Source: Candidatus Omnitrophota bacterium (GTDB lineage: Bacteria; Omnitrophota; Gorgyraeia; Gygaellales; Profunditerraquicolaceae). Taken from it: a DNA stretch of 64,000 bases. The translations under genes and the position numbers were made by a program. Position 1 is the first letter of the stretch. Every line of letters starts with the position of its first letter. Below the pieces are notes generated by a model. That model made no database searches. It was not told the DNA's origin and was given only the letters and a program-made list of their open reading frames with translations. The DNA lies in contig JAQURX010000002.1 in assembly GCA_028715415.1 (NCBI GenBank), forward strand, positions 4,703 to 68,702. Direction: 5' to 3'. Of this stretch, positions 11,045 through 63,000 are shown piece after piece.

Positions 11045-11045
11045 T

Positions 11046-12912: not shown

Positions 12913-12923
12913 AAAGGAAAATA

Positions 12924-16481: not shown

Positions 16482-16492
16482 CATGTTTTAAT

Positions 16493-16555: not shown

Positions 16556-16568
16556 AACAAGGTTTTCG

Positions 16569-16858: not shown

Positions 16859-16887
16859 TGACACTATTAATAACTATATGATATACT
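16859..16887 (+). promoter_or_regulatory. Near-consensus sigma70 promoter TTGACA-N17-TATACT with extended -10 (TGa)
   Basis: TTGACA at 16859-16864, 17-nt spacer, TATACT at 16882-16887, TG at 16879-16880. About 35 nt upstream of the riboswitch. Confidence 0.6.
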
Positions 16888-16924
16888 TTTGATGCTCTTG
16901 GAAATAAGATTGTTTATCTGAAAA

Positions 16925-17005
16925 AGGTAAACTCCGAGTAATCGGAGGACACAAAGCCACGGGTCCTCACGCGAGAAAGAATTGTAGGATAGCCGGGTTG
17001 CCGAA
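16925..17005 (+). promoter_or_regulatory. c-di-GMP-I (GEMM) riboswitch aptamer
   Basis: GGTAAACTCCGAGTAATCGGAGGACACAAAGCCACGGGTCCT...GTAGGATAGCCGGGTTGCCGAA aligns block-for-block with the Vc2 aptamer (GGCAAACC-hairpin-GGGACGCAAAGCC ... GGTAGGTAGCGGGGTTACCGA). Confidence 0.6.
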
Positions 17006-17038
17006 TAAAAAAATTATTTGACAATCCGGCTTTTTTTT
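16991..17038 (+). terminator. Intrinsic terminator acting as the riboswitch expression platform
   Basis: AGCCGG (16991-16996) pairs with CCGGCT (17025-17030) and is followed by TTTTTTTT (17031-17038). The 5' arm is shared with the aptamer P3 stem, so the two structures are mutually exclusive. Confidence 0.6.
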
Positions 17039-17079
17039 GAAGCATTAATAAATAGTTTGTTAAAGAATAAAAAAAGAAA

Positions 17080-39000: not shown

Positions 39001-42000
39001 TAGAATTAAAGAAAGGATGGCTATTTAAAATAGGCCTTGATTCTCAGCTTAGAAGAGCGATTTTAATGGTATATCAGACCAGCGCTGCAATAGTAAATGA
39101 GCCAAAAGTAGAGCAGTCTGTAGTAGAAGCTCCTAAGGCGGAAGCAAAGCAAGGCTGGTTAAAGAGAGCTGGAGCTCGAGTGCTCGGAAGATCCTATTCT
39201 ATTATTCCTTTGGGTGCATTATTCCCTCTCGCTAATAATACTTCAACTCCCGTAGTTAACGATGCTTGGGTTATGGTTGTTTTACTTGTTATCGCCGCAA
39301 TATTATTGCCGGTTGCTTTTGCAGATATGGCAGATATGAGGGTAAATTCTTCAACTGTTACTAAGATTAGCCCTGTTGTTGGAGCATTCTTAAATCGCGA
39401 GAAAGAAAAGAACTCAGCAAAAGAAGAAGGGGCTCGCGAAGATACAGTAGAAATTTCTGAAGAAGCACGCAGAGCTGCAGCGCAGAAAGTAGCCAAGATA
39501 TTTACTGGATATGGTTTTGTTGGCACAAGAGATGGTGGGATTGATGTCGTAGCTTTAGGATTAATTTGGTGTGCTTGTGTTGGCATATTTGATGACAAAA
39601 ATAACAAATTCGTCGTGGCACATCTTGGAATGGATAATGATGTTGCTGCCTCTATAGATTTATTACTTGCTAAGTTAGGGAATGCAAATATTAAAGAGCT
39701 TAGATTTGAGGTAATTTCTTCAAAAGAAGGGGATATCTTAAAGAATGAAATTATGCGCGAGCTTGGTAGAAGAGGAATTGTGTTATCTCAGGTTGCTGAA
39801 TCTAGGGTTGAGCAAATGTCTGCTAACGCTTATTTGAATGCAAATAGCGCTAGTATGGATGTACGTAAGAGCGAAAACTTAACCTTTGATTTAATAGCTT
39901 CTCAAGATAAGGTTGGCCAAGGGCAATTCGAGTTGCCGCTAAAGAATTCTTCTTTAAGTAAATCTTTATTTGATTTTGGTGCTATTGTTGCTGGTTTAAT
40001 GACTCAATCAGCATTCGGCGCTAGCACAAGTATTCTTGCAAATGCAGGTGACGCAATAAATTCAATCATGACTTATCTTCAATATGCATTAATCGCTTTA
40101 ATTATTTATGGCATATATTCAATTATGCAGAAAAGATTTGTTGCCGGAATTTATAGTATTGTATTATCAGCTGCGATGTTTGGCATAATGGCAATGCCGC
40201 AAGTTAGCCCTGAATTAGCTTTAGCTGTATTTGCTATTTCCGGGCTGGGTGGATTAGGCGCAAAATTATATTTTAGAAGAGCAAGTGCTCGTGATATTAA
40301 TTTTGGTAAATTGCTTTTGACTTCATCTTTATTGACTGCAATTCTTGGTATGGTTGCAGAGGCAAGAGGCAACACAACTCAGATCCAGTCTTCAGCAACG
40401 ACTGTTAATTCGTTAGTATTAGGGGCTGTAAATAAAGTTAAAACTCCTGTAAGAGCTGCAAATAATGTTAAACCTCAAAAAGCCGGTAAATCAGCGCTCA
40501 AAGCACGCAGCCCACCAGTAATTAATTATAAATCTTTTGAATTGAATGAACTTACCAGAGTAATTGTCGGTGAAAATATTTTCGAAATCCTCAAAGCCTC
40601 CAATAAAGCACAAAGAGAAAGAATAATCGCTTCAATTGTCTGGATTGTTATTAACAGAGCAAAAGACGGTGATTTTGGCGGTAACACTATTTGGAAAGTT
40701 CTAACTTATTCAAATGCTTTCAGCTGCAGATATGATAGAAACAGTAATTATTATACCTATTATAATGATGTTGATAACAAAGAAGAAATTGCTCGTATTA
40801 AAGCCGCTGTTCAGGCTGTCTTGACAGGTAAAATCGCCAATCCAATCGGTAAGGCCACTCATTATTATAATCCGAATAAATCGAATCCTTATTGGGGTAT
40901 AAACGCCAAGACAATAGCTTGGGTTGGCCCGCACAGATTCGTAAATGTGAACAACAAAGAACTTCCTACCGCTAGCCAGAAAATAGCAAGCACAACTAAA
41001 TATTATGGCAAAAAAGCTATTAATGCAGCTTCAAAAGCAGCTTTAAGAGCTTTAAAGAATGCTTTTTCAACAAAAGGTGTTAAACATAGAGATGTTGGAA
41101 CTGGCCTTGTTCTCGTAGGTGTAGTTGGCACAGAAGCTTTTGCAGGCATACTATTAGCTGTAGTAGCTTTACTGGTTATTAAATTAGCACTTAATAGAAT
41201 TGATATAAGAAAAGCTTTGATTGCTGTAACTTTGCCAGCGATGTTCTTCTATGCAGATGTAAAAGATACTGTTGCCAAGTTTATGGATAGTGAAAAATTA
41301 GTTTGTTCCCACTGTAGTAAATTACCTCCGGGAGGAATCAGCCCTAAGCTTGCTGCTCAAATTGATGTATTAGAAGCTCGCCTGAAAGAATTCTTCCAGA
41401 ATAAGAAAGAAATAAAGATTATACCAACATCCGTCTATAGATGCCCTGCATACAATAAGCAAGTTGGCGGTGCGAAGAATTCGCAACATGTAGACGGAAT
41501 CGCTGCTGATTTTCAGGTATTTGTTGATGGAAAGCAAATGCCGGCTATACTTGTGAGGCATTTTATCGACCAATTTAATCTTGGATTTACAGGTAATGGC
41601 ACATATCATGTCAGAAAAATTGTTAATGGAAAAGTGACCTATGTTGATTGGAATCATGGGGATGTAAGAGAAGGTGCTAAGGCCGAATGGAAAGATATCG
41701 ACTCTGGATCTACTAACCAGAAAAATACCAAAGTAACTAAGTATACTCATCACCGTCATGGCCGCGCAAGAGGGTGTTCAATGTTAGGTTCATTCTTCTT
41801 TGGCGCGCTTTATTATCGTGATGACGGGAAATTACTGCTCCATCAAGGACTGATTATTAGAAAAGCATTTGTTGCCACATATGGAATGTTCTGGGGTAAT
41901 ATTTATGCGTTGACCAGTCCGATTATCAGCCAGACTGTATTAAGTTATGATATGGAAGCTGATGCGGCGTTTGGTTATCTTGAAAAAAGAGCAGAATACA

Positions 42001-45000
42001 AAAGATTTGTTGATGCTATTTTAAAACATGAGCATGTCCACTTAACAAGTACTTCTGAAAGAGTTGCGTATAGAGTTAACTTAATCGCATTACAGAGAGC
42101 AAAAATTAATTCATTTGAGGACTTAGTTGAATATTTGGCTCCAAAAGTAGAAATTGCAGAAAGGGGATTTGATCCTAGAGATGAAGAGAAAACTATTGAT
42201 ATTGTTGCTGATAAAAAACCCGCGGTTAATATCTCTGTAGTGGTTGTTAGGCCGGAATCAGGACATTACTTAGATGTTAAGCCTTGGCAATTAAATAGCT
42301 TTATTGTCGGTGCACTCGTTGCCTTCTTCGGCTTAGGCGAGGTAGTGGCTAATGCTGCTACAACTGCTGTTCAGGATCCAACCAATAGCGATTTACTTGG
42401 CCTTCTTGCAGTTGCCTTTGTATTATTCATTAGCCCTATAACAGCTATATTAGCAGGATTTACAAAGGCTTCTGAACGTAACGGTACTGTGATACATGAA
42501 TCAAGAGAAGATGTAGGTCTTCCTAGCGAAGCATATATCATCATCTACGCCTTAACCTTGATATCCAGCATGATCTTGCCTGAATTACGTGTAATAACCA
42601 GCTTCGCAGGCCTACTTGGTATAGCAGTATTTTCCTTAAAAAGAGGCGTTATTAATGACATAAAGAAATATAAAGAAGAGTTGATGGTGCTTGCAGTGAT
42701 GGTCATAGTTATCCTTGGTATTGTAAAGATGATGAATAGCATGCCAATAGCAGGGCAAAGCAGTATTTCTTTAGGAGTTGTATTGCCGCTTGCTATTCTT
42801 GCGGTATTAGCTTTAAGTAATCTTAATTTCTCCGCAACAGCGGTTAGGGCTAGGCCAACAGTGGCCCAGGATAAGAATTTAAGAAAAGCAATTAGATTAA
42901 TAGATATAAAACTTAAGAAAATTAATGGAGCAAGGCCGGCTGTCGTAATTATTGATGGCGCTTCTGGGGTTGGTAAAACTGTTTTTGGAAAGAGACTCGC
43001 AGCGCAGTATAAAGGCTCCAGGCTTATAGACGTCGATGATTATGTCCGAGAAATGCATCCAGATGGTGATAGCATTGAAATGGTTGATTATTGGCAAATC
43101 AAGAATGAAATTGAGAATTCGGATAATAGTCTTGTGATAGTTTCTGGGTTAAATGCTTTGTATAATTTAAGCAGTATTAATGTTGATGTTACAATAAAGC
43201 TGAAAGCAGATGAAGAAACAAGAGAGGCTCGGCTTCTTAAGAAAGCCAAAGAATTAAGTTTGACTGAAGAAGAGTTGAATGATAGAAGAGATTCATTCTC
43301 TCTTTCCGGTGATAATAAGTTTGATTTAGTGATTGATGTTAGCGCGCAGAAACAAAAGAATTCAAGAAGCACATCTTTAGCTACCGCAGTTGTGTATTTA
43401 GTTGCAGGTTTAACCGCCTTCTTTGGCTTAGGCGAAACTATTGTTAATGCAGCGACAAGCGGAATTGTTGCGCAAAACAGTATTTTTGTTAACGCTATCC
43501 CGGTAATCTTAATAATTTTAGTTATATTGGCTGGGGCATATATCATTAATCCTAAAGTTAGAGATGGTATTGATAACACGTTAGCGCAGATTAAGGATTG
43601 GATAGTAGCAAATAAATTCGTAGTTAAAATTTTCTCAGGTATTGTAGTAGGAATTTCGCTAATCTTATTTACTTTTAACCATTTCGCTTCTTTAAGGAAT
43701 AAAGAGTGGAATGAGTCTAAGAGCAATAAGAACTTAGTTGAAATCAAGAATGCTTTTGAAAATAAGAATAGCGAAGCGCTTGATGGAATTATTAAAGATG
43801 CAACTGCGCGCGGCAATAGAATGCAGGAACGCCTCAAGAAAGCTGAAGTAAGCAAGGCCAAGAAAGTAGAGGATGCTACTAACGACCCAGTTAAGCTCGC
43901 AAAACGTTATCTTGCTTATGACCGTATGGTTGCTAATTTGGCTGAATTATTCAAGAACCAGATTACAGATAAATCTTCAAGCCGCATTGGAGCAATAACT
44001 CCTAATGCTTGGAAAAAAGAACTGAATGATTTAGAGCAGGATGCTATTAAAACCGAATTTGAAGGTTATTTATTCGCTGCATTAAAAGCTCTTCATAACG
44101 AAATCCTCGCCCAACAATTTAAAGCAAAGCAATCTGAAGAAACCATCAATGGATATAAATCTGCGGCACCTTTCTTATTTAAGAAAAATATGGGAGATGT
44201 AATTAATCAGGCAATCGCAGCATTAGAGCAATTTAAGAAAGAAATTGCTGTAGAAGAATCTCAATACAATTCCAAAACCGCAGCAATGAGACAGCGCGTA
44301 AGCGATAAGCTTTATAAACAAGATAATGCATTTAAGGCCCATCGCGATAGAAGAGATGACTTAGGAAAATTATTAAACAGCAAGATTGTGCCTATGGTGG
44401 AAATTGCAAAAGAAATTGACAGTAACCTTGAAGGAGTGATTTCGGCTAGAAATAAAGAAACAGAAATGAATGCTTTGGCTGAGGCTAATAAGGACGTTGC
44501 AGAAGAAGAGGTGGAAAGAAATTCAAAAGGCGAAATAGTCCGTCGTTATACAGTATATAGAGATTATAGCGGTCCTTATAGAGCAGCTGCAGCCGTCGCA
44601 GCTTCGGATGCGCAAAGCCACGCCCGTAAGGCAAATGAGGGAGCAGAAAAGCTAAAGAAGCAATTATTAGAGTTAAAGAATGATAAAATTTTTGTTTCTG
44701 AAGAACTTGGTTCCATGCTAATTGGTGGAATAAATGTTAAGCTTGGCCAAGGCCATGGTATTTTCTCAGATTTGTTCTTGCCGCCAGTGTTAAATATATT
44801 TACTGGAGTTAGTTCTTCTTCATCTGCATCAAGCGCTCGCGTAGAATTTGCTCCGTTACTAGCTTCTTTGAAAAATGTTCAAAATATTGTTCAAGGTAGG
44901 CTTGATGTTGAGAAAAAATGGATTAATGCTCAAATCGACGCAGAGCTCAATCGGCAGATTTTACAGGTTAAACCAGAAAAGGAATCTCTTCAGCCAGAAA

Positions 45001-48000
45001 GAGCTCCAAAATATTCTTCGAAAAAACTAAACAAAGTATCAACTAAACAAGAAAAACCATTCTGGGCTGCTTTGAATGAGAAGGCTCAGCGCAATAGACG
45101 CTTTGTAACACTCGGCGCCCTCAACGTCTTCTTCGGTGCTGAGACGATTGTTAATGCAGCACAAACTGCCACTACTCAGCCAGCTCAACAGCCTTCTATT
45201 TTAGCCGCAGTTATAGTAGCAATTATCGCATTAGCCGCGGTTGGATATTTAAATCACTCAATGAATAAGTTTGGAGGTTCCGAATCACAGAAGAATGTTA
45301 AAGGCGATGCAGAAAGTATTGATTTAATTGATATGTACGGTATTAGCTTATTGCCTTTAGCACTGCCTCTATTAATGGGGGCAGCTCCAGCAGCCACCTC
45401 TGCTGCACAGACATCTGCTCAGTTAAATGATGGGTTTGCTATTTTAGGACTCTCCTTCATTATTCCAGTAAGCATTGTATGTGCAATAGCAGGAGGAATC
45501 CTAAATGCTGTTGAACGTAATGGTAGCTTAAATGAATCAAGAGATGACGCTGGAATCCCCAGCATATTCTTAATAGCTATCTATGTATTAACTTTAGTAT
45601 CCAGCATAATATTACCCGAAGCCAGATTAATAACCAGTTTTGCCGGATTGATAGGAGTAGCTGCCTACTTATTAGCAAGAGGTATCATTAAAGAAACCAA
45701 AGCTTTAGCAATATCCGTTGCAACTAAAATCTATTCTGGCATCAAATTATCTAGTAGGGCATCGTTAGTATTATTGGTGTTAGCTTTACCTATATTAATG
45801 GGTGCAGCTAGCGTAGATTTAGATAGTATCGATCCTTTTGTTATAATTCTTCCTCTTTCTTTAATAATAGTAGGAGCTGTTGTTATTTCTATTGTATCGC
45901 GTTACAACCGAAATTTAGCGAAGTCAGGTTATGATTTAGAAGCTCTTAGTAAAATGACAGATACAGAAAAAGCAATGCTTGTCCCGCAGCTTATCGAAGA
46001 TGTCCAGCAACAAAGAAGTGAATGGGAAAAAGCGGTTATTATCTTGGGATTAATAGGTGACAAGATGGCAAGTAGGCCTTTAGTTAGGCTTTTAAATGAT
46101 CAGATAACTCGCTACTTGGCGTCCTTAGCTGCTAAAGATGGTATGAATAGTAATATAGAAACTTGGTATAAAGAATGCATAAGCGCGATATTAAAATCAT
46201 TAGAACAGATAGGGGATATATCAATTGCTGCGAATTTGATTCTTATGTCTTATCGTATACCAAAAACAGTCAGAAGAGTAGATGTAGCAGCTAATAGCAT
46301 CAGTTTAAATGTTACCTCAGAGTATGCTCCGAACGAAATATATAATATGTTTAGTAGTACCATTAGCAAAATGTCTAGCAGTTCTTCGCTAGCTGTCTCT
46401 TTTGCAAATTCAGTTGCATATGGCTTATTGTTTATTGGGAGAAATGGTACGTATCTGATTAAACAGGCTTTTAGGGTTGCCCAGGCTTTTATAAAAGAAT
46501 ATGGGATATTGAACGGTTTACTGAAAGCATTAAAAGCACCCATTGCTACACCATATAATTATGATATTGCTTTTAGGAATTTACCTAATAAATATCAAGA
46601 TGCAATAAATATGCATGAATGGGCACATGAAAGAGGATATAACGAATATGTCGCTTACAAAGCACAGGTAAGATTTATGAGAAAAGAAAATAAAAATTCT
46701 TCTCTTCGTCAGGCAAGAGCAGTTCTTTCTGCAATTAGAAAGCCTTACGAGGATTTAATAAATACTGTAAATGAGCAAATAGAAAAACAATCATATTTGG
46801 AAGGATCTCTTTCAAAGAAAGCAAGAACAATAATTAATTATAGGATAGAAAGCCTCAAGAAAATATTAAGCGATATGAAAGAAGATAAAATTGGCTTAAG
46901 AGGCGCTCTAAGTAGCGTCCCCGTTAAACTTCGCGATAGTATTTCATCAGAAGTAAATCTTACTGAAGAAATATTGACGGAAATGATTAACAAAGAAGTT
47001 GCAAGATTAGAGAATCTAAATAATTTACGAATTAATAACCGGATAATGCCTGCTGAGAATAAAATAGACGCTTTAGCGAAGAATGGCCCTACGATATCAG
47101 AATGGTTGGTTTATACTGTATTCAACAACTATTATCGTTGGCTCAGAGAATATGTAGCTCACAATAATTCTATGCCATCTTTGAATGTGAGATTAAATAA
47201 GTTTATTGGGGTAGGGAAAGGTTTAAATTTTAAGGAGAGTTTATTAGGGGAGTATCTATTAAAGACTATTCAGGCGTTAGTTGAGGAGAATAAAGAGATT
47301 AAAGATGTAGAGATAATTGCTTATTTAAACGAAATGTTAGATTCTAAGACGTATAAACAACTTATATCTTTGGTTATCGGTGAAGATGAAAAATTAACCG
47401 AAGAGATTATTGCTAATCAGCGTGAAAACGCAATTAACGTGGCACTAAGCGATATAAGAGTAAGGCGCGTTTTGCGTGAGAGAGTAGCCATAGTTAATGA
47501 TTATGCGGCGGATTTAGGTTTGTTCGGTAGACTCGTTCGTGCGGTAAAGCGTTTTGTGGCAAAATTAAGCGGTGAAATCAAATCGTTAGAAATGATGGAA
47601 AGAGATATTGCTACTCGTGTAAAGGAAGCGGTTCTAGCTATAAGAAAGAATGCAAATGAATTAAGGCAAAATAGCAGTAATCTCTATGATTCTTTTGCTG
47701 CGTTAATTGAAAATGATGAAGATGCAGTTATTTCAGGTGGAGTTAGAATGGGTTGGTTGAAGTTCGCTCCGGCTACCGTTGGTGTTTTAGGCTTAGTTGC
47801 GGTTTGTGGGATACTCTGTGGTGGATGTGCCGCTGGTTCAAATCTATCCTCCGGTTTTATGACAACAATAGATAATTCAACTATGGATTATCCTGATGTT
47901 TCAATGGATGGTAACAATCAATTATCCTCACAGAATTTATCTGTTGGAGCTTATCCTTATTTTGCACCTGTAGTAAAAGCTTTGAATGCTGTAATGCTTG

Positions 48001-51000
48001 GGCAGGTGGAGAAGGATGATGATTTACATGTTAAAATTTATACTGGTGATTGGTGTGGGATGTGCCATGCAGCGAAGGATTTCTTTGATAAACAAAGTAT
48101 CCCTTATGAAGAATATAATATAACCAATAATAAAGCTAATGCAGAAGAGGCCAAAGCAAAGTCTGGGCAAGATGCTATACCGGTTATTGATATTAATGGT
48201 ACAGTTATTGTAGGCCTTGAGCGTGAGAAGATTTTAGCGGCAATTGCGCAGGCAAAGCAGGAATTAGAAGCAAAGCGTGCAGCTGAAGCAGCAGCGAAAA
48301 CTGTTAAAGAAACTCCTGTTGTAGAAGAAGTAAAAGCAAAAGAACCTGTTGAACCAAAAGAAAAAGCAATACCGCCAGCCCCAGCCTTAATGGAAACAAC
48401 CAAAGTTAAATCTATTTCTCAATATGGCATTACTTGGACATTTGATAAAGAAGTTGAGGCATTCCAGTTTGTAGACGGAAGCTGGGGAGTTAAAGGGCCG
48501 GTAACAGTTGTTAGTATTAATCCTATGCCGTCTGATGGAAGCAATGGTTCAATGGTTAATCCTATGCCTGGAACAGAGCAGGCATATGATTCACGTATTG
48601 CTGGTTACAACAGCGCGTTGTCAATACAACCTCCATTTACACTTGAACCAAATGAATCTTTAGTTTCTACGATTAGCACTGATAATGGACAGCAGACTAA
48701 TTATAGAGGATATACTGGAGCAAGGTCTTTATTAAAAACCGCCGCAGTATTAACTTCTTTGGAGAATGTCCCTGCTAAAGGCGCATTTCGTCCTCCTTAT
48801 ATTGGCAATGAAAAGCCTGTATTTAATACTAATAAACTACGCACAGAACTTCTGCCTTCATTAAAACCTGTAGGAAATGTTCCGGAATTGTCAACTTTTG
48901 AGCGTGATTTCCAGAGAGTTTGGATTGATCATATGACAGGATGGCAAAGCCGCTTTATGCATCCTTTGGAAAATATGGAAGATTACGGTGCGCGTATCGC
49001 AGGCGTTGTTGGTGAAGCAGGATTATTGCTTTCAATGGATTATCCTCTTAAAGAAAAACAAACATTGCTTAATGGAGTTGTCCAAACCGGAATTGATTTG
49101 TATGGAGTTGCAAAATTACATAAATCAATTTGGGAGCCTGATGGCGGCCATGGCCCGGGACGCAAATGGTTAATTACTTTTGCCGGATACATGCTTAATG
49201 AAAAAGATTTTTATATGAATGATTATTTAAGCGAAGATAATAATACCTATTATGGTGATGAGCAGAATCAGCTTTGGACTGGCTGGCAGAATTCTGGCAA
49301 TCCTTATGCAGCGAATGTAATGTGGAGAATGAGGGTTGATCCTGATAAATTCAATTATGAACATATAATACCTGAGAATTGGGATAAAGCACCTTTCCCC
49401 ATTAACGGGCAATACCCATATAACAAATTCCGCGCTTATCAAGGTTTATGGTCTAAGGCTGTGGTAGCAGAGGCACTTGCTGCACGGCTAATTGGTTTTA
49501 AGGATAAATGGAATCACGATGCTTTCTTTGATTATGTTGACCGCTGGGTTTATGAAGATGATGTAATGGTAAGGAAAGCGATTCAAAATGCCGCTATTTC
49601 TAATGATTGGTCTGATCCGCAAGGCCGCGATCCAAAAGATATTAATTATTACGCTCCTTATTTTGGCCAGACTGCCTCAGAGCCTTGGGTAATGGATATG
49701 TATAAAGAGTATCGTTCTTCTCATCCAGCAACAATTGAAACCGTAGCAACAAAACCTGCGAAGAGTTTAGCAAGCAAAGTAATAAAAACGGCAAAAAATC
49801 TTAAATATGAATTAGGCCTTACTAAGAAGAATGCCGCAAAATTGGCGTTAACAGTTGCTAATTTAATTCCTCAAACTCCGGCAACGTCAATGCCAACAAG
49901 TAGAGACAATGTTAATTTCCCCGCTGCAAGAATAGTAACGCTTAATCCAGCAGATGCAACCGTAGATAATTATGGCCTTGGTTTATTTGATGAAAATGGA
50001 AATATTAATTTAAATAGAATAATGATGTTCCCTGAAACAAAAGATTATTTGAAGTTTAGCGGCCTGGCTCCTCCAGTATCTAGCCATCCAGCAACCCAAA
50101 CACAGATTAAAGATTTATTAGGCGAGATTGCGCAAATCGTAGCACAAAAAGATCAAACATTGGCTGCACAGTTACGCAAAGCCAATGTAGTTATTTCTGA
50201 TAAAACACAAGGTGTTGTATTTGTTAAGGAAGGCGTTTATATTGCAAAGGATATAATTGATAATCCTCAGGAACTCATCCGTTCAATCATTCATGAAACA
50301 GGCGCAGCATTAGGAAAGTCAGATACAGAGAATCAAAAACTCGAACAGGCCTATGCAGAATGGAAAGGGAAGCAGAAAGTTTCAACTAAGCCTGTTGTTG
50401 CCCCCACCACCAAAGAATCTGTGTCTAAGCCGGCTAATAATAAAGAAGCTACTGACGATAAGTATAAGAAAATATTAACCGCTTTTAAGTCCGCAGGAAA
50501 GTTAGACATCGCAGCTAAAAGAATATGTTGTGTACAGTTGGGTATGTATGTAGAAAAAGAGCCGATGCCAGATCAGGTAATCAAGGTTCTTGTAGAGGCA
50601 GCTACGGCAAATAAAGAAAATGTATTTTATATACCGGTCCGTCAAGCGGCAGCAATGGAATTAGCAAGCCAGGTTAGAAAATACGGATTACCGGAAAGCG
50701 CAATAAGGGATTTATCCAGGGCTTTTGTTTCAGAAAAATCCCCGGAAATGTATGATCCTATTACTGTCATATTTAGTATGTATTCAGAAAAGCAAAGATT
50801 ACCAGAAGATGTCTTATTGTCCCTTGTTTCTAAATTAAATAAAGAATATAAAGATATTAATGCGCAAACCAATATAATCCCAGCATTATTAACCCATACT
50901 CAAAGACACGGCCTTCCAGAAAAAGTATTCTCTGTTTTTATCAATATATTAGGTTATGACAATATCGATGAATTTCAGCGTTGGTATGTTACTGAAGCTG

Positions 51001-54000
51001 CAATTTGGCAGGCACAAAACAAGAATATAGATACAACTTCGCTTAAGGAAATTCTTGGAACAAAAGTAAAAGAGCACAAGGCTACTAAATTCTCAGCTGA
51101 AGAATTAAATGCAGTAAGAAATGTTTTTGAAAAGAAAGCTATTAAGGTAGCGCCCAAAGAGGTTGCGCCTCAAAAAGTTACACCCAAAAAGGTTGTTCCT
51201 AAAATAGCGGAATCAACAGTTACTGTTGATTGGGAGACGCAGAGGAAGGCACAGATGGAAGAATTTAAACGTGCACTTCAACTTGCTCCTGAACCGAAAT
51301 TTGTCCAGGCAAAGAGCGAAGCAGTCTCGGCTTCGGCAACTCTTGATTTAGGCATGATAACTGGCCAGGACACTCGCTCTGCTGAATGGTCTGCATGGTG
51401 GAAAGATTTTACTAATCCAGTTGATTTTTCTTCATTCCGCTTTGTTAATTTAAAAATTCGCGGTGAAGGCAATGTTTACTTCCAATTAGTAGATAAAAAT
51501 ACTCAGGATGGCGCACCGGGAGGAATGAATCGCAAGGCTTATAAATTAAATAGTGAAATTTCTGTAATAAGTGTGCCGCTAAGTGAATTTACAGGAATAG
51601 ATTTGACTCAAATAAGAAGGCTTGTAATCAATGGTGGGCCGGATGTATTTGGTGATAAGATTAATTCTGAGCAAGCAAAGGTATATGTCGAGAATATCTG
51701 GGCTTCTCAAGTAGAAGGTGAAATTAAAGAAGCGGCAGAAGAACAAGTTGCTGCTTATCCTCAAGCTTTAACTCCAACATTTGTACAGGTGGCACATACT
51801 GACGGTGGTTTTAAATTAGAAGTAACAGGGCAAGCTGCCGGTAAACAGTGGTCTGCTATCTGGTCAGATTTCCCAGCTATGGATTTTCGTAATTTTGAGA
51901 GCCTTAAGTTGATAGTCAGAGGGCAAGGGAATTTCACAGTGCAGTTATTAACAAAAGATGCTGATGAAAACCAGCCACAAGGAATGCATGCAAAGACTTT
52001 TGCTTTAAGCCAAGAGCAGAAAGAAATTTCCATACCTTTAACTGGATTCGGTGTTGATTTAAGTGCGATAAGAAGAGTGATTATACATCGCGGTGAAGAA
52101 GTTTATGGCCAGGTTCTAAACAAAGACGGAAAAGCAGAAATTGTTGTTGATGGATTGTATGTATCAACACAAAATGGTGAGCGTAAGATTTTGACTCCTA
52201 ATGGGCCAGAATTTGGTTTGGTAAAAGCAGTTAATTATATGCCAAATCCTGTAGGCAAGAGCCCCGATGCAGGGAATCTTGTGGTGCATGCTGATTGGTT
52301 AATCAGTGATGCTAATAAAAATGGTATGCCTGATGGACCGTTTGATTCATGGGTGGATTTGAATAGGAATAATCGTCAGGATAGTAACGAAAAGGCAGTA
52401 GGAGATTTCTGGCTCATGCGTCAGATGAACGCTAATGTAGTGAAAGTTTATCAGGTAGAGTGGGATAATCTTGCTCAGAGAAAACAAGTGCTAAGAACCG
52501 CGTTTGATAAGAACGACTTAATGTTCATTATGGGTGATTATTTAGGAGCGTATGGCCAGCACGCAGGTATTAAGTGGCCGGAGATAACAGACTATAGTAA
52601 TGACCAGCAGCGACAGGCTATGACTGATTTTGTCTTAAAGATGGTTAAAGGATATAAAGATGAGCCATATGTATTAATGTGGATGCTTGGTAATGAAAAT
52701 AACTTTAAATTTACTAACACTAACGCTGGGCAGAACATGAAAGTTTTCTTAAAGTTTGTTAATGAGGTGGCACTTAAAATCAAGGAAATTGATGCAAGGC
52801 ATCCTGTTAGTATTTGCCTTGGTGGAGATGATGCTAATCTTGTAGAAATTCTTAAATTAATGAAAGAATATTGCCCTGCAGTTGATATCGTAGGCCTTAA
52901 TTCTTATAAAAATGGTAACAACTTTGGCCCTATTTGGCAGCAGGTTAAAGATAATTGCGATAAACCGGTTTTCATTACTGAGTTTGGCTGTCCTGCTTAT
53001 ATTCCGGGTGAGAGTGTTCAAGTTGCTGAAAAAGCACAGGATCAATATTTGCAATCCTGCTGGAATGATATAGTTGCAAACAGCTTTGGAAAAGGAAAAG
53101 TTGGTAATGCATTGGGTGGAGCGGACTTTGAAATACTGGATGAATGGTGGAAAGTTCAGCCTCATCATAATGGTGGAGCTAACGCTAGCGCAGACAGACA
53201 GGATGCAATTAGTGTTGCTCCCGGTCCATTCCCTGGTAAAGGATTCTATGAGGAATACTTTGGTTTAATGTCACAAGGTGACGGCAGCAACAGCCCGTTT
53301 GCAAGACAGCTTCGACCAGCTTATTTCATGTTTAAAAAGGCCTGGAGTAATGAAGTCACAGATTATAATCGCGCAAGAAATACAGCTAATCCTCCGACAA
53401 AAGAAGAAGTAACCGCTGCTTTAATATCCGGTCAACAGCGCAATGAATTCAGCGATGTTGCCGCGGATGCTCGTGTTCAGTCAGCGGTCAAGGAAGTAGC
53501 AAGATTCTTCTCTGAAACAGCTCGTGAAGCAGAAGCTCAGCGCCTGAAATTAATGGTTAAGCAAGGTTTGTTACGTGCCGGGCCAGCATTTGATAAATTT
53601 ACTGCTACGTATCAACCCCCGCAGCTTTTTGTTAACAAATCTTTATTAAGTTATCCTCAAAAACTTATCTCTCAGATAAAATCACTTTTTGGAATTGCTC
53701 CTACATCTCAAACAACCAGCGCGGCTAAATCATCTGCATTAGAAATTAAGCCGGGTAGTTTGGCTTATACTATAAAAGTAAGTGAAAGAAATCTCCAGAT
53801 TAATACTATGGCCGCAAAGAATTCGTTTGAAGATGCGCTAAGAGGCAAGAATCAATCTATTGCATTAAAAACAGCCCCAGAGAATAAGCTTACTCTTTCT
53901 TTAAATGGGATGAATGAAGCGGTGAAGTTTGATATCGCTGGGTATAAAGATGTAAGAATTGCTGCTCACGCCGTAATTGAGAATTTATTTAAAGACGGGT

Positions 54001-57000
54001 TAATGAGTTTAAGTGCTCCCGCAGGATATTATTTTGCACGCGGCAATGCTGGAAATCAAGTTAACGTAATTAATGCAAGTGATTTTGATGCAGGTATATT
54101 GCCAGCTGGTTATAAATTGTATTGGTTTGAAAAACAAAACGGTAAATGGGCAAAAGTTAATCAAGGGGACCTTGGCAATTCAGATTATATGGCTGTGCTC
54201 TTACCGGAAGCAAACAGAGAAAGGCATTGGTGGTGGCTTTTTGGTGCGCCAATAGATCCGGATAAACTTGAAAAAGCAATTTCCCGCGGCGGGATGGTTG
54301 TTTCTAAGACAATCAGTAGTTGGGATGTGTATGAAGATCTTTTCTTGGCTGACGGAGCTGCCGGTGCGAGGACATTTAGCTCAATACTTACTACAATTGA
54401 TGGCGAAGATGCTGTTGAATTTACTCCAGTGTTCTTCCACAGGGGATTAAACTTTATTGATATTGATTATCTGGATGCTGTAGAGAGGGTTGTTTATGTT
54501 GATGTAAGCGTTAAGCCTATCAGAGTTATGGATAAGTTTGAAGCCATTGGTAAGGCATTCGGAAGCTTTGATGTGTATTTAACTCCGGAAGGTAAGCTCG
54601 CCGAACAATATAAAACCGGCGAAACTGTAAGAAAAGAGTGCCTTAATATACGCTCACTTGATAAAACAGCCAGAGTTATGTCTGATTGGGGATCTGATGT
54701 AGCAAGAAACAGAGCATTTGTTGCGATGTTACAGCTTTCAGGCAGCCTTGTAAATGTTATTCAGATAGGCGAAGACGGTATATTAAAAATGGTGAAGTCT
54801 TACTCTGATGAAGCGGAATTTGAAGAAGATAGGAATAACGGAACGTTAAATAATTTAGTTAATCAATATAATACATTCTTAGTTTATGGATGCGGTTCAT
54901 TGAAATTACCGGAAAACTTCTTTGTCAAGCATGGTAATGCAGTGCAGCTTATCATTGACTTGTTTAAGAAACATAAGAAAGAAATCGCTCCTATTGCCGG
55001 CGGCTATATGTTATTTGCTCCTTATTCTGCAGATAAAGAAGCTTATCTTGTTCCATTAGAGGAAATAGAAAAGCGTTTCTTATTGTCAAGATGGACAGAG
55101 GTAACTCCGAATTACAGTAGGGCGCAAATGGTTTCTTTTAATCAAGATACAGCTAAGCTTGAAGTTAAGGCTGAGGCGGATTTACTTTGGTTGTATGGCA
55201 AGAAAGAAAACTTAAAGTATAGCTTCATTACGCGTCCTTTCTTTACCCTCGCATTTGATACTAATTCTAATGTTTGGCATGTTGAAGATGTTTATAAAAC
55301 CGAGAACGAGCATAACAAAGGCGCTTTGGCTTTTAGAAGCAAGGTTTTATATATGAAAGACGGCGAATCGGTAGTCGGATGGTTTGATTATGGCCATCTT
55401 CCTGCAGATCCAGCAGCTATAATTCTTGAAGTCCGTGACATTGAAGGTAATTTAGTCTGGGGTAAAACATTAACTGCGGCAAAGTATCTTTATGAGAAAG
55501 CCCAGAGAAGCGTTTATTATAACCTTCAATCACAGAATGCCGCAACCAGAGGCACTCTTATTAATATCGCTAAAGATGTTTTTAAGAATGGCACGATACT
55601 AAATCCTATGTATTTGCAAGAAATCGCCAATTCAATTAAATATTATTCTATCCTTTCCGGTTGGGGCGGAGAAGATGTGGATCTTAATTTCTTGCCTAAG
55701 CCAGCTCTTGATATGTTCGGCAATTATTTCCCGCATTGGGCTACAGCAAAGAGTTTTGATAAAGGTTTTGATATAGGAGGATTTGCGAAGACAGCTTTAT
55801 TGGGGGCAAAATTACCAAAAGATAATCCTAATTCAATCGAGGATTTAGGTAATGGTAATTACACTATGACAATGGAAGTTCCTTATGGAAAAGGAATTCC
55901 TGAACAATTGATTCTAAAGGAAAATAGCTGGTTTGTAATTAATTGGCTTTGGGATACATTCTGCGTGCATCCGAATCAGTTTATCATGGGTTCAATTGGC
56001 GCAGGCAATCCTACTCCTACACAGAAATTCTACTTTTTAACTCCTAATGGCCATAAGGTATTTATTCCCGGAATCAAAATGGCGTTACGCGGTTTGGAAG
56101 CGAATAAGATAAATTATGAGAATAGCGTTAGAGAATATGAGCATTTAGGCCAGAGCATTGTAAGGTCTTGGTGGGTAGACGCTGAAACCGGATATCTGCA
56201 TATTGAGGTTGCTTTTGGGCATGATGAATATATCAAAACCCAGAAATTGGCTCAAGCCCAAAGAGCTTCTATTGAAAAAGGCCAATTCCAATATACTGAC
56301 GAGAAAGGTAATACTCACTACGTTGTAATTGAGACGGGAGTGGAAGATGCCTTTAAAGTCGCTCAGTATTTGAAAGCCGCTGTAAAGTACGCCTACGACA
56401 TTAAAGCAATAGCAATTAATGGCGGCACGATGGTTATTCCGAATGAAGAAGGTAAATTTTATCTTCTTGGCGAAACTCCTCAAGGATTAAAGATTAATGT
56501 AGGAGGCAATCCTTTAGAGGCATTTGCAGGGCTACAGAAACAAATTGTAACTGGTAATGCGGTAGACTCAATTAATAACTATTTAAGATTTTATAGATTG
56601 ATTAAGCCGAGCGAATCAGTAACTCTGGATAAGGCAATTGGCATCTTAGGCAGCTACGATAAAGATGTTAATTTAGCCGAGCTCAAGGCTTACTTGGAAA
56701 ATAAAGGGGCTGCAGCAGTAACGCCAGAATTGCTCTGGCTTATTTCCCGCCCACCGTTTGAGTTTGATTGGGTTGTGTATTCCAAGGCAAATAATAGTTT
56801 CTATAAGTTCGCGTTTAACCCCGAAGATACAAAAGAATTAACCCGCCTGCAGAATCAGAAACATTCTCTTGAATTGGCATTAGGTAATTTAACCAAGGCA
56901 GTTAATGATCTTGGAGATGGGGCACCATATCCTTACTTAGATTTTATGAATGCGATTGTAAATGAAGAATATGTGATTGAACATGGTACGCCATTTAAAG

Positions 57001-60000
57001 TAATTACATTTGAAAACGCAGTTACCAAGAAACAATTCAGGGCTACGTTTGATACAAAAGGTTATCTTATTAAAACAGTTGATTCTGATTCTAAAGAAAC
57101 AATTCTTTATGATTACGACGCAGAGATTGGTAAAGACGTGCCTTTAGAGGCGTATGATGCTAAGCGTACAGGCGTTGCATTATTTACAGCAAAGAAGGCG
57201 GAAAATAAAACATATGAAATTATCCGTACAAATCATGAGCCTATAAATTATGAGAAACAAGTTTCTATTCTTTACGCGGAAGACGGGTCAGAACTAGCAA
57301 AAACAATAGTTCTTTCAAATGGCGATGTGATAAAAAATGTTTATTTAAGAGATGCCACTAATATTAAGAGATTTATTGTTGCTTATAAGAATGGGCGCTT
57401 CTTTAAGATTTCCAGATTTGATTCTCAAGAGGCAAATGGTAATAGCCGTTATGAGGTAGTGGAAGCTAAAGAATTATGGTCTATACCCGCACAATTAGAA
57501 ACTGCAAATGGAGTTTTAAATGTTAATCAGGCAGAAACAATCTTTGCAGGGCTTAACCGTAAGAGTCCCGCAGCCACAACTTATGGGAATTACGATGCAA
57601 GGTTTGACAGAGAGATATCTAAGGTCATTGAAATGAAAGACAAAGACAATAAGGTTGATATTAAGAGAATTATAGAGTTTGTTTATAAGGGAAATTCAAA
57701 GATTCCTTCAATGACAATCTTAAGAGAAGATGTCCGTAATAATGAAGTCGTGAATAAGATTTGGTCTGTATCAGTAAGGGAAGATGGAACTGAGGCTGAA
57801 GTGCATCGTGAATTTTTGCAGCGCATGGGGATAACTGAAGAAAGCGCCATTGAAAAATTCTTTGCTGAATTAATAGAAGGCAAGAGAGGGCTGCCGGAAG
57901 TAGTAAGAATCCATACCCGTAATGTTCATGGCTGGGATACAGAAGTTAAATTCGGCGGAACAAGGCAATATTTTATCTATGATCAAGATGGCGTGTTAAA
58001 GGGCGGCATAAATACTGTAGCAGGGGAAATTGATACTTTGAGTTATGTTGATGATAAAGGCTTGATTCATCTTCTTGAGTTAAATAGTTTAGATAAAGAA
58101 ACAGCTGAAGGCATTCGTAAAGAATTTTCTGGCCTTCCAAAGCTAGTAAAGGAAAATCACAGCATTTTAAATGCCAATTTCAATATTGAAAGATTGCGCG
58201 AAGTTATCAATAAAAATGCCCTTCGTATTTTAGAGGCTGACTTCTTCGGAGATATAAGGAAAGAAGACGTTGGCGTCCGTAAGATAACCTACAAAACCGA
58301 TGTGCGCGTTGACCATAAGTTAGGTATTACTACTGTTAATGGAAAGTTAGTTGAGGCAAGCTTTAACATTGATAAAAACACTCCTTGGATTGTTTATCGC
58401 ATCAAGGCAAAGAATTTGTCCGCAGAAGAGGCTAAGCTTATTGAAGGGTTGCTTGCGAAAGGGTACATCTCTACAGAATCTAAGAGTGAACTTGATATAA
58501 AGAAGTTGGTTGATATCTTTAAATCCAGAGAAACCAAAGCCCGTGTTACTTTTATTGATATGTATCGCAACGAGGCTTTCTATATTGAAAAAGGCAAGCT
58601 TCAATTCCCCATAAGGGATCGCTTAGGCAGAATTTTACACACCTTAGCTTACGAGATTAAGAATAGCGGGAATGTTGTGGCTGAATTAAATAAACTTCTT
58701 GCTGCTTCTGGGTATGAATATAATCAGAAATTATACGATAGTGTTAATGCGCTTGGGTGGTTAAGCCCGGTTTCTTATACCTTAGAGCTTGGTTCGATTA
58801 CTCTTCCTGATGGAGCTAAAGCCCGCCTGATGCAAGTTCACGAATGGAAAGATAAGAAAAAAGCAATTGGCAGCGGTAAGCTCTTGCGCACCTTCGGCGT
58901 GGATATGTTTGGTGATGAAGTAGTAAAGATTAAATATTGGAATGATGCAAAGAAAGATATGCTGTTTATTGTGAGGGATAGTAAGGATATTAGTCATAGT
59001 ACCGCTTTTATAGGGGGCATTGATAGAGAGAATAGCATTGTTAAAGATCAAGTAATCTCTGTATCAAAAGAAGGGGTGTTCGCAGATATAGTAAATAATG
59101 AAATGAGAAGCCGCATACTCGGAGTGGAAAGATTTCTCAAAAGCCAAGGCTTTGCTACTGATATGGGGTTTGAAGGTTTGACTTGGGCTAAGATTACCAT
59201 GCTTGATAAAAATAATAGGCCTATTAGTGAGTCTATCCAGGCTTTTAAGGATAGCGAAGACCCAGTTGTAAAGATTGAAAAAGACTTGGCCGACTTTGTA
59301 TTTGTTTATGCAGGGAAAGAAATTAGTTTACGTTTTGATTTATCCGTAGCGTTTGACGAAAAAACTGCAAGCCCATCTGTTATTGCGAATGTTGAGAATA
59401 AATACAGTAGGCTGATTGTTGATCTATATAAACAGATGATCTTTAGGGATAGAGCAGATGATGATAATACTAAGATTACACGTGAACATTTACGTAAGAA
59501 TGGCTTATTTAACCATGATTGGAAATGGTTCTTGGAAAATATAGCAGAAATAGGTAAGAGGCCAATAGATCGAGAAGAAAAATTTGATTATCAGGAAGTC
59601 AAAGTTGGTAAAACAGTATTTTCTTCTTCTTTGCTGAAAGCTTTAGATGTTCCTTCACTGTCAGATACCTCTTATCAATTTGTTCATACTACTGATCCGG
59701 AGATACATACTCTGCATATAGGGCAAGGGCGGTTAGAGAATATAGATTGGGAAAATCATTTAATAGTTTCCCGAAACGAAATATTCTTTTATAACAATGA
59801 AAATGTTGATAGTAAGGATGTATTTTTTACAATCTACTATAAAGCATACCGAGATTTCTCTGGTAACATACCAATCCAAACATTTTACGCCGATAAAGAA
59901 TATAATGATCCTCGTTTTTCAAGCCATGTTTTTGATTTTGATCGTTATGGAATTGGGCGTCTTTCAGCTGTATTTGGCAAGGAAGAATCCGGAGCATGGG

Positions 60001-63000
60001 AGCCTCTTAGTGTTGGTAGATCGGTTAGACAGGGTATCTCTAATAATAGGTGGGAACCTTTAGTTGGCGGGGCAAGTGTTACTCCAGTTAAAATGCTGCT
60101 TAAAAATTTGGTTAACCAAGATACTAATGAAAACATCTTCTTTTTTGAAATTACTGATATTAACCGAACTATTGATATAGGATTTAATCCTTCAGATCCA
60201 GTTTCTACCTATAAGAATATTTATGCTAAATTTAATGAGCTTTTGGCGAAGGAATATATTAAGGAACGTTATATTATAGGTAAAACTGGTACAGGAAGAA
60301 TGGTTACTCGCTTGATAGATTTCAAACTTAATTCGGCTGGAGATATTATTAGCGATCCACGTTTGATTGTTTATTTTCTATATACTCCAGAAATCTTGAG
60401 CGCCACAGAAGCAGGCCCGCTTCACTTTGGATATTCTCGAGAAAGCTATATTTATCCATATAATAAACAAGAAGGCCTCGATGTTATGTCGTATGCAAAT
60501 AAAGAATGGAGTAACAGTAATTGGGTCGCACATATTTTTAATCGTCAGTTCGCTACCGACTTACAAACAAAAGAGATATTAATACATTATGATGTGCAAG
60601 ATCGTAGAGAAGGGTATACATTTATTGGCAAGGCTCTTTCAACCTATGGGATGCTTAAATATGATGAGTATTTAGGGCAGTCTGGGGAGCCCGAAACAAT
60701 GAGAATTTATTATGGCCTTCGTGAGATACCAACAAAAGCCGTTGGTTTTGATATGAAAGGGAATAACCCGGAATTATGGAGACAATACCGTAATAGCGTA
60801 GTGGATGAAAACGGGCATACCTATTTGATAGTTGATGAAATCGATCCTATTAGGAATGCTCATCCATATATGTATGCTGCAGAAAAATTTGTTTATCCTG
60901 AACTTAATTGGTTTGTTTTGCGGGATGGAATGTTCTTTGCTCGCGCCGATAAATGGAATTATTCTACGCAAAAATATAAAGCAACGCGTGATTTTTCTGA
61001 AGATGTATCAAATAGCGGATTGTTTAGGATTCTTGGTAATCAAAAAGCTGTCAAAGAATCAAAGAAAGTAATTGAAAAAGCGTTGAAAGAAAATAGATTT
61101 AATCCTGTTCCGGATGTTTCTCAAGATGAAATTAAGAACGCAATGGAAATGCGCAAAGCGCGTTCCATTGATGGTTATGTGCCAGTAATGTTAATTATCG
61201 CAGGAATTATTGGCTGGGTTGTTTTGGTATGGCAATTGTTGAAATTTGCTGTTTCTAAACCAAATATTAATTCTGCAAATAAGGAAGAGCTTGAAGGAGT
61301 TTTTTCTCCGCATGATGCAGGGAATATCCTTCTAGCCCGCAAAGAGCGCGTAGCAATTGGCAATGTAACAGAATTGCCAGAACTGCGCGATACTACAGTA
61401 GATAAAATAAGAAACAAGATTAGGTTTACTGAAACAGTAGGAGGGATTACTCTTGAAGAAATAAGTAGTCTTAATGATTTCAAATATGAGAATATAGAAG
61501 GTACAATTCTTTCTGATAGCGTGGAGTATGTTAACGATCTTATTGAGAAAGGTTTCATTTCTAAAGAAGAAGTCGAACAGATTGTACGCGAATTGGCTAA
61601 AGGGTTATCTGTTGGAGTGTTGCCATTGAGTTTGGTAAAGGCTAAATTACTAAGTAGAATCTTTAGGTGTGCTTACTGGGATGGTAGTTACCTTCTTAAA
61701 GATAGTGTGAGAAAAACTTTAACTAAAGCAATAAAAGACCTGTTTACAAGAATAGACATGCCAGTCTCTAAGGTTCTCCCAGATCAGTTTATCAATGAAA
61801 TTATCCAGGAAATATCTGTCCATCGTGTACCTGAGTATGTATATGATTGCGATACGGGTAAATATGAAGGTGGCAAGAAACTTTCTTTAGGCACTGGTTT
61901 GTGGGTGTTTGATCCCAAAGCAGATTATCAAGTTGTTTCTTTAGAGGACTTTGTAATTAAGTATAAGGTAATTTATACATTAGTGCCATTTTTTAGCACC
62001 CATACCCCGGCAGTAAATTGGTTTACTCGCCAGGTAAAAGAGATGCTTATTAATAAACAAGATAAGGATATAAAGGCTTTTATCAATAACCATCGGAAAT
62101 TTTGGTATCAAGCGTTAAAGGATCAGTTGGATAATAAGTGGGAACCTATGCGTGACGACCGCGGTAAAGGGCCTGCTTATGAGAATGAAAAGACCAGAGA
62201 GTGGAAATATTTAATGATTTGGTCTGAATTCAATGATTTATTCCGTTATTTGCTGGAAGTGGACGATTACAATAAGCCATTACCTTGCCTTAAAGATGGA
62301 ACATTCTTCGATCTTAAACAAAAGATAATGACCGATGTTTTTTCTAAGATTGCAGCTGGTGATACACAGTTTACAAATGATGAGCTGACCTCAGATTTTC
62401 TCCAGAAGATAGTGGATGTTTATTTCAAGCCATTTAATCTTTACGTAACCGGTAAATTAAGAATTCCTTATTATGATAGGAAAGTATACAAAGCCAATAA
62501 TACGGGTGATGTTAAGACCGGAATATGGGCAAAGATTAAGCCTTATATTCCGTTTGTAAGGAGATGGAGAAGCCCTGAACGAGGAGAGATCGGCCTTTGG
62601 GCCTTTGTATTATTTAAATTGTTAGGAGATAAAAGATTTTGGAGTAAGGATATCAAAGATAAAAATAGAAATGCCGGGAAAAAATCTAGTTTTGTATCGA
62701 GTATCCCTGTATTTATCCGTGTAGCAGGATATGCCACTATAGCTATTTTAGCTGCAGTTTACATTCCCGAATATCATCTTTTAGGATTCAATGTTCCATT
62801 CTGGTTTAATTCTGTGGCAGCAGTAGGTTTAATAATGACTATACGTTTATTCCTGAACGATACTACTTTAAAAGCCCGTCGCCAAGCGTTGATCTGGGGT
62901 GCAATTAGCTTAGTAACCGGCATGTTTATTACATATATCATAGGATACGTAGCAACGCATTGGATGTTTATGCCTATACCTTTTGAACTTAGTTTTTCAC

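Follow-up and report, generated by a model that had tools for sequence, protein, structure and literature searches.

What kind of enzyme is carried inside a giant protein of a Candidatus Omnitrophota bacterium, and on which glycan might it act? The question is raised by a 64,000-nt stretch of a metagenome-assembled genome (the window, whose coordinates are used for all nucleotide positions), in which a single giant open reading frame (ORF) runs past the window end without a stop codon. Between residues ~11076 and 11749 of this ORF, all in the same stop-free frame, lies a carbohydrate-active block. A first reading made from the letters alone (the sequence-only reading) had described it as two tandem repeats resembling carbohydrate-binding modules (CBMs), followed by a TIM-barrel-like, GH5-like glycoside hydrolase (GH) of clan GH-A. 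The frame-3 translation contains this arrangement; amino acids are numbered here along the giant ORF. We consider it probable that the block forms a complete, modular carbohydrate-active unit within a giant multi-pass membrane protein, acting outside the cytoplasm as a retaining β-glycanase with β-glucan as its favoured substrate.

The catalytic domain belongs solidly to clan GH-A. Modelled with AlphaFold2 (AF2) from the family alignment, it is a (β/α)8 barrel in which 8 strands alternate with 8 helices (predicted local distance difference test, pLDDT, 87.4; predicted template-modelling score, pTM, 0.89), as the TIM-barrel-like appearance of the sequence had led one to expect. The GNEN and ITEFG motifs singled out in the sequence-only reading lie within MLGNENN (nt 52683-52703) and FITEFGC (nt 52971-52991), and their glutamates, Glu11541 and Glu11636, are 95 residues apart. 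Strand 4 occupies model residues 173-178 and strand 7 residues 272-277; Glu11541 stands just after the former and Glu11636 at the end of the latter. Together with Tyr11611 after strand 6, these positions make up the clan GH-A (4/7) signature. In this clan the tyrosine after strand 6 is expected to hydrogen-bond to the nucleophile, and Tyr11611 would take that role here. Across 55 homologs, 40 alignment columns are invariant, both glutamates included, and the window copy keeps all 40. When the model was compared with the PDB using Foldseek, all top matches were GH-A barrels: GH158 came first (E ~3e-14, TM-score 0.51), followed by GH2 glucuronidases, GH53 galactanase, GH1 and GH17 laminarinase.

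Within the clan, sequence and fold comparisons alike single out the GH158 endo-β-1,3-glucanases BuGH158 (6PAL) and GH158(Pro) (9ORO and 9P25) as the closest solved relatives; they share the same (β/α)8 barrel. As a single sequence, the window domain matches 9ORO at E 3.8e-15 and 6PAL at E 2.5e-7, and then GH2 enzymes and GH5 mannanases; a profile of the 55-sequence family gives E-values of 2.7e-19 and 9.7e-16 for GH158, with GH2 β-glucuronidases from 2e-13. In GH158(Pro), Glu143 is the acid/base and Glu229 the nucleophile (PMC13195107). With the 8-residue offset of the deposited chain applied, these two residues align exactly with the GNE and TEFG glutamates of the window, and the retaining chemistry of clan GH-A is expected. 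GH158 barrels are coupled to a C-terminal eight-stranded Ig-like domain (PMC13195107), and their β-1,3 specificity is imposed by an aromatic platform formed by Trp77, Phe278, Tyr291 and Trp236. In contrast, the window barrel runs into a Pro-rich linker with no C-terminal Ig-like domain, its free-standing homologs stop no more than a few residues past the last helix, and its family has an extra insertion with two EF-hand-like loops. Because the alignment covers strands 4-7 only, structural identity is 17-20% and the Ig-like domain is absent, membership of GH158 is not established.

The barrel could alternatively belong to an exo-acting GH2-type glycosidase (a β-galactosidase, β-glucuronidase or β-mannosidase) that trims single sugars off glycoconjugates. 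Pfam Glyco_hydro_2_C (PF02836) is the sole GH model passed by the window sequence (26.7-28.9 bits against a gathering cut-off of 21), the homologs are entered in their sources as 'GH2 TIM barrel-domain containing protein' or 'beta-glucuronidase', and GH2 glucuronidases form the second tier in the sequence and fold comparisons alike. However, the N-terminal sugar-binding and Ig-like domains of GH2 (PF02837, PF00703) were not detected at E ≤ 1 on window positions 51120-53520, where CIA30/CBM11-like domains precede the barrel instead, so that GH2 membership fails on architecture. Furthermore, each of the three comparisons puts the GH158 endo-glucanases at the top, many family members also match GH72, and the GH94, GH116 and GH5 genes found beside homologs fit gluco-oligosaccharides (both described below). 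An exo-acting enzyme of this type is thus, in our judgement, unlikely. The label 'GH5-like' was sound as to the clan and too specific beyond it; we rejected it at the family level, the GH5 model being matched weakly by 2 of 55 members. The nearest families are GH158, the GH2 barrel and GH72, and membership of GH158, GH2 or GH5 is not shown for this domain.

The true family of the window GH domain is a group of free-standing proteins that carry the 'GH2 TIM barrel' name. A homology search with the barrel returned 219 proteins at E ≤ 0.001. The best 120 of these share 40-49% identity with it over ~95% of the domain (45-49% for the closest, from Omnitrophota and Elusimicrobia), and nearly all of the best 120 are encoded as free-standing proteins, 630-690 aa long, in Omnitrophota, Elusimicrobia, Endomicrobia and Auribacterota. 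The window barrel corresponds over its full length to the C-terminal ~410 aa of these proteins; the N-terminal ~240 aa show no relationship to the window repeats and give weak TPR matches. A hydrophobic N-terminal signal, predicted to be a signal peptide, is present in 74 of 99 full-length homologs, indicating that the family is exported. Among the 55 sampled members, Glyco_hydro_2_C is matched by all 55, GH72 by 38 (best E 3e-8) and GH42 by 26. The free-standing enzymes resemble the window barrel over its whole length, with the same invariant residues and the same EF-hand-like loops. They are, however, encoded by separate genes in sugar-uptake loci and have an N-terminus of their own, whereas the window copy lies in frame within a giant ORF, follows two CBM-like repeats and, of the members sampled, diverges the most (terminal branch 0.32 versus a median of 0.11).

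Gene neighbourhoods of the free-standing homologs, collected from seven loci, bear on the substrate. An SBP_bac_1 gene, followed by two BPD_transp_1 permease genes, immediately precedes the homolog in two loci and lies near it in a third. Other recurrent neighbours are an MFS_2 transporter, a ~600-aa PilZ protein, GH94 or GH116, GH5 with CBM6/35, LacI, ROK kinase, phosphoglucomutase and tandem paralogs of the GH itself; on one Omnitrophota contig, the homolog follows a giant gene (at least 7,941 aa) at a distance of ~6 kb. GH94 enzymes are disaccharide phosphorylases and GH116 enzymes are of the β-glucosidase type, both of which suit β-gluco-oligosaccharides, and GH158 and GH72 act on β-1,3-glucan. 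The GH94 and GH116 neighbours, taken with the kinship to GH158 and GH72, therefore suggest β-glucan as the favoured substrate. The contig with the giant gene also fits the gene content published for the surroundings of Omnitrophota giant genes: pilZ, solute-binding, transporter and glycosyl hydrolase genes occur downstream of them (West-Roberts et al. 2023 preprint), and 'GH2' genes are their most frequent catalytic flank (10.64898/2026.06.07.730766). The module had been proposed to broaden an envelope-degrading repertoire; the homolog neighbourhoods point at least equally to the harvest of a β-linked glycan for uptake.

Alternatively, the barrel could be mainly a transglycosylase of the GH72/GH17 glucanosyltransferase kind, remodelling a β-1,3-glucan-like surface or matrix polymer of the producer itself instead of breaking down foreign glycan. 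The GH72 matches across the family and the GH17 laminarinase among the fold matches are in line with this, as is the general capability of retaining GH-A enzymes for transglycosylation. The window sequence itself, however, has no GH72 match at E ≤ 0.01; the homologs stand in uptake and catabolic loci, whose ABC transporters, phosphorylase and β-glucosidase fit degradation; and no glucan synthase was seen nearby. We regard remodelling as very unlikely to be the main activity.

A hallmark of the barrel family is a pair of tandem EF-hand- or dockerin-like loops inserted after barrel strand 1. In the window copy these read D11412-x-N-x-N-G-x-x-D and D11428-x-N-x-N-N-x-x-D-x-x-E. The liganding positions are kept in at least 50 of the 55 family members, and the AF2 model places the loops with high confidence (pLDDT 86-97). 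Their sequence pattern suggests that they may bind Ca2+; we know of no Ca2+ site at this position of the barrel in GH158 or GH2. No such loops occur in homologs at a greater distance (27-32% identity; Myxococcota, Bradymonadia and Oligoflexus), among which the Myxococcus homolog was examined. These distant homologs occur in predatory bacteria, and in Myxococcus sp. Y35 (L053, 9455-12916) the barrel is part of a ~1,150-aa protein with a ~600-aa C-terminal extension, adjoined by a GH1 β-glucosidase gene; some connection with GluM, the outer-membrane glucanase of myxobacteria, is conceivable.

The two repeats that precede the barrel are clearly related to each other. Repeat 1 reads WSAWWKDF..FVNLKIRGEGN..FQL..VPLSEFTGIDLTQIRR and repeat 2 WSAIWSDF..LKLIVRGQGN..VQL..IPLTGFGVDLSAIRR, with 48 of 125 residues identical (38%) at a BLASTP E-value of 2e-28, far beyond chance. 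The pattern given for them in the sequence-only reading holds apart from its opening, which has one more intervening residue (W...W.DF, not W..W.DF), and repeat 2 is shorter by one residue at F-G. The repeat period of 154 aa is made up of a domain of ~130 aa and a linker of ~20 aa. A profile of the two repeats scanned over the 15,308-aa ORF found these two copies and no third.

Assigning the repeats to a known family proved harder. No Pfam model matches repeat 1 alone, and none is passed by either repeat singly; CIA30 reaches 24.1 bits, against a cut-off of 24, only by summing both. A word-indexed search of 5.8 billion proteins with single repeat sequences found nothing at E ≤ 1e-3, and a 32-sequence repeat profile run against the same index found 3 proteins only. 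An exhaustive HMMER profile search of 1.84 billion representatives returned 59 proteins at E ≤ 1e-3, 10 of them at E ≤ 1e-10, and so few relatives in such a collection mark the repeat family as rare. Among the 32 aligned members, 6 match CBM30 or CIA30 in Pfam and 5 match CBM_11, with an E-value of 4e-17 for CBM30. Against solved structures, a single repeat gave just one meaningless match (E 0.13), and the family profile placed the CBM30 modules 1WMX and 2C24 on top (E 0.006), with CIA30 lower. The AF2 model of repeat 2 is an all-β sandwich of the jelly-roll type (pLDDT 77.6, pTM 0.76) for which Foldseek lists the CBM11 structure 6r31, bound to mixed-linkage glucan (TM-score 0.60), CIA30 7zkq (0.57) and CBM29. 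In the fold alignments identity is 13-15%, which makes the repeats very distant from all of these. They are a rare, divergent family at the fringe of the galactose-binding-domain-like CBM11/CBM30/CIA30 group, and the description 'CBM-like β-sandwich' is supported for fold and remote homology, that is, at the superfamily level and no closer. The repeats may bind carbohydrate.

Several relatives of the repeats come from Candidatus Omnitrophota giant proteins, as fragments that fill their contigs. In four relatives there is a GH-A barrel as well, more distant than that of the window, and one of these (P0135) has repeat and barrel in the window's order, colinear with repeat 2 and the barrel over 462 columns; the pairing of repeat and GH-A barrel thus recurs in other Omnitrophota giant-protein fragments. 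The same block was not found elsewhere: in 80 genome-contig loci every match was to the GH part only, an exact 44-nt string from the block had 0 matches in metagenome contigs, and searching metagenome contigs at the protein level with the repeats brought up no relatives. The closest small relatives of the repeats (P0180, P0181 and P0160) are of another kind: 242 aa long, they combine a signal peptide with a CBM30-type domain and a PGF-CTERM sorting signal (PF18204) and look like archaeal surface proteins.

Is the giant ORF that holds this block real? An assembly or frame artefact, in which an ordinary CBM-GH gene has been joined to its neighbours, might be suspected, as the source is a metagenome-assembled genome and searches of protein collections did not bring up the giant protein itself. 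Yet the frame runs for 45,924 nt without a stop codon at a G+C content of ~39%, which makes a chance origin impossible. The proteins 5′ of it are identical to the Candidatus Omnitrophota entries MDD5431564-582 and match a single 196-kb NCBI contig exactly, and both block borders consist of Pro/Lys-rich linkers that contain neither a stop codon nor a start signal. An architecture in which a giant ORF begins with a C39 domain and adjoins a Tad cassette has moreover been described from Omnitrophota (2026 complete-genome preprint, 10.64898/2026.06.07.730766). The window ORF has the features of this C39 group, namely its length, transmembrane segments, N-terminal C39 domain, Tad locus and Omnitrophota genome. 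An artefact is, on this evidence, barely credible. Like the giant proteins reported from the phylum (West-Roberts et al. 2023; 10.64898/2026.06.07.730766), this one exceeds 15,000 aa, has many transmembrane segments and an N-terminal C39 domain, follows a Tad/type II secretion-like cassette, and combines cell-wall hydrolase with glycosyl hydrolase content. Those reports mention GH domains and GH2-type flanking genes in general terms; no other genome or metagenome contig searched contained this in-frame module of two CBM-like repeats and a GH158-like barrel. As the sequence-only reading had it, the block shares its protein with peptidoglycan hydrolases, a SleB-like Hydrolase_2 and a Peptidase_M15_3 domain in the same frame.

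On which side of the membrane the block lies was estimated from hydropathy. A scan of the giant ORF predicts 27-35 transmembrane-like segments, depending on which of three thresholds is used, and the block falls inside a transmembrane-free stretch of 4,450 aa (residues 9921-14370). The last hydrophobic segment before it resembles a signal anchor, with basic residues, a hydrophobic core and then a Ser/Asn/Thr-rich start. The orientation favoured by the K/R bias places the block outside at all three thresholds, and a count anchored on the M15 domain (outside) and the P-loop domain (inside) does the same. We conclude that the stretch containing the block probably lies on the extracytoplasmic side.

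Several observations weigh against an extracytoplasmic β-glucanase with sugar-binding repeats. The GH158 alignment is confined to ~130 residues of strands 4-7, at a structural identity of 17-20% and a TM-score of 0.51, and in the family-profile search GH2 β-glucuronidases and β-galactosidases fall only a few orders of magnitude below GH158. The long branch of the window barrel could reflect a changed specificity. For the repeats, the CIA30 cut-off is attained only as a two-repeat sum, 6 of 32 relatives match any CBM model, and the Foldseek E-values for the repeat 2 model are weak (~1e-3). The topology comes from a crude hydropathy count, in which the SleB-like and M15 domains would be on opposite membrane sides if residues 7674-7706 form one helix. 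Glutaredoxin-type domains are usually cytoplasmic, and one with a WCGMC motif shares the transmembrane-free stretch with the block; the partners of the repeat in other Omnitrophota giant proteins include GT5, HPr and transaldolase, domains of a cytoplasmic type.

These last points, together with the long branch, would suit a module that is cytoplasmic or catalytically idle, one of the metabolic domains of giant proteins that acts on internal or imported oligosaccharides or serves as a scaffold only. The retention of all 40 family-invariant residues, the catalytic set included, argues against this, as do the signal peptides of the free-standing homologs, the K/R bias favouring the outside at each threshold, and the signal-anchor-like segment with its Ser/Asn/Thr-rich start ahead of the stretch. 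We hold a cytoplasmic or idle module to be quite unlikely. In the Omnitrophota giant-protein fragments P0124, P0134 and P0149, the repeat is combined with normally cytoplasmic domains, which comprise GT5 starch synthase, CsrA, transaldolase, PTS HPr, PEP-utilising, ARMT1-like and PRPP synthetase N-terminal domains; such combinations have a bearing on the membrane side of these stretches.

For the extracytoplasmic β-glycanase that we favour, a mode of action can be outlined. The module would be displayed on the extracytoplasmic face or cell surface, where the β-sandwich pair would dock it on a β-linked glycan, most likely β-glucan, with β-1,3 or mixed linkage favoured. The barrel would cut this glycan by double displacement with retention, Glu11636 attacking C1 and Glu11541 serving as acid/base, while Ca2+ held by the two EF-hand-like loops may stiffen the barrel. 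The glycan might come from the surroundings or from the envelope or matrix of a prey or host; in the latter case, the module would work beside the SleB-like and M15 peptidoglycan hydrolases. Released oligosaccharides could then be imported and passed to ABC/MFS uptake and GH94/GH116 breakdown systems of the sort that accompany the free-standing homologs. As to origin, the giant gene may have taken up a secreted enzyme and combined it with binding domains from a pool of giant-protein domains. The block has the look of a mosaic: the barrel has its nearest kin in a secreted free-standing family, the binding domains have theirs in other giant proteins. A more far-reaching combination would make the barrel a new clan GH-A family sister to GH158 (more than 200 relatives, EF-hand insertion, no Ig-like domain) and the repeats a new CBM family found largely in Omnitrophota giant proteins, with the module cutting a β-1,3-linked glycan of prey envelope or matrix at the cell surface; as a whole, this is doubtful.

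Table 1. Features of the carbohydrate-active block, the giant ORF and the upstream Tad locus (window coordinates; residues in giant-ORF numbering).
Feature	Nucleotides	Strand	Residues	Basis and remarks
CBM-like β-sandwich repeat 1	51330..51767	+	11086-11231	Profile envelope; best CIA30 Pfam stretch here
CBM-like β-sandwich repeat 2	51771..52187	+	11233-11371	Profile envelope; all-β AF2 model
Clan GH-A (β/α)8 GH domain	52188..53345	+		~385 aa, ends ...RPAYFMFKKAW; Pfam GH2_C, GH158 similarity, AF2
Two tandem EF-hand/dockerin-like loops (DANKNGMPDG..., DLNRNNRQDSNE)	52308..52391	+		Inserted after barrel strand 1; putative Ca2+ sites
Asn11540-Glu11541, predicted acid/base, end of strand 4	52692..52697	+	11540-11541	Invariant (n = 55); aligned to Glu143 of GH158(Pro)
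Tyr11611 (LNSY), after strand 6	52905..52907	+	11611	Invariant (n = 55); position from AF2 model
Glu11636 (ITEFG), predicted nucleophile, end of strand 7	52980..52982	+	11636	Invariant (n = 55); aligned to Glu229 of GH158(Pro)
Last hydrophobic segment before block, signal-anchor-like	47778..47834	+	9902-9920	Hydropathy scan, K/R bias
Giant ORF	18078..63998	+	at least 15,308 aa	Frame 3, stop-free 18075-63998; continues past window end
Peptidase_C39	18642-18893	+	190-273	Pfam; N-terminal in giant ORF
Peptidase_M50	32421-32780	+		Pfam; giant ORF
SleB-like Hydrolase_2 (peptidoglycan hydrolase)	40638-40940	+		Pfam E 3.2e-12; giant ORF
Peptidase_M15_3 (peptidoglycan hydrolase)	41358-41531	+		Pfam E 7.9e-10; giant ORF
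AAA_18/zeta-toxin-like P-loop domain	42945-43268	+		Pfam; giant ORF
Glutaredoxin-type domain with WCGMC	48030-48209	+		Pfam Glutaredoxin; giant ORF
RcpC/CpaB	49-924			Tad locus
Secretin fused to TonB C-terminal domain	941-2602			Tad locus
TadZ(ParA-like)-TadA ATPase fusion	2606-4759			Tad locus
TadB + TadC	8529-10287			Tad locus
TadG-like protein	12924-15071			Tad locus
At least 8 Flp-type prepilins	starts 7535, 7707, 8178, 10290, 10459, 10652, 11046, 15993			Leader (K/R)(A/G)QST(L/A/I)EY

The remaining features of the window are collected in Table 1. Pfam leaves most of the giant protein without a match. Just 5′ of the block, a helical region (~50580-50950, residues 10836-10960) shows a motif recurring every ~60 aa (..YGLPES.., ..QRLPED.., ..HGLPEK..), which suggests an α-helical repeat scaffold. 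A complete Tad/Flp pilus locus (nt 49-18078) immediately precedes the giant ORF. It includes a 673-aa ORF with a TTG start (5223-7244) that has no Pfam match and whose first third contains a long low-complexity segment rich in Glu, Pro and Lys.

That Omnitrophota giant proteins contain GH domains and are flanked by GH2-type genes has been reported in general terms (West-Roberts et al. 2023; 10.64898/2026.06.07.730766). What this locus adds is the precise identity of one such module, the placing of the 'GH2' family closest to GH158, with hallmarks of its own, and a copy of that family fused with rare CBM-like repeats into a giant ORF, an arrangement that was not found elsewhere in the collections searched. 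The enzyme itself is of an ordinary kind, a modular CBM-GH, in an unusual place. The 'GH2' enzymes repeatedly noted beside giant genes accordingly represent a distinct family closest to GH158 rather than typical GH2, and the presence of one family copy inside a giant gene offers a concrete example of how these genes possibly grow by capture of neighbouring functions.

Roles in predation or host dependence are ascribed to Omnitrophota giant proteins and, to our knowledge, no domain of any of them has a known substrate. With ~680 aa, clear borders and a complete catalytic set, the module could be expressed alone and provides an experimentally tractable entry to giant-protein function; its glycan, once found, would indicate what at least one giant protein acts on. 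Were the combination of a new GH-A family, a new CBM family and surface display to hold, the module would be the first small, expressible handle on the target of an Omnitrophota giant protein.

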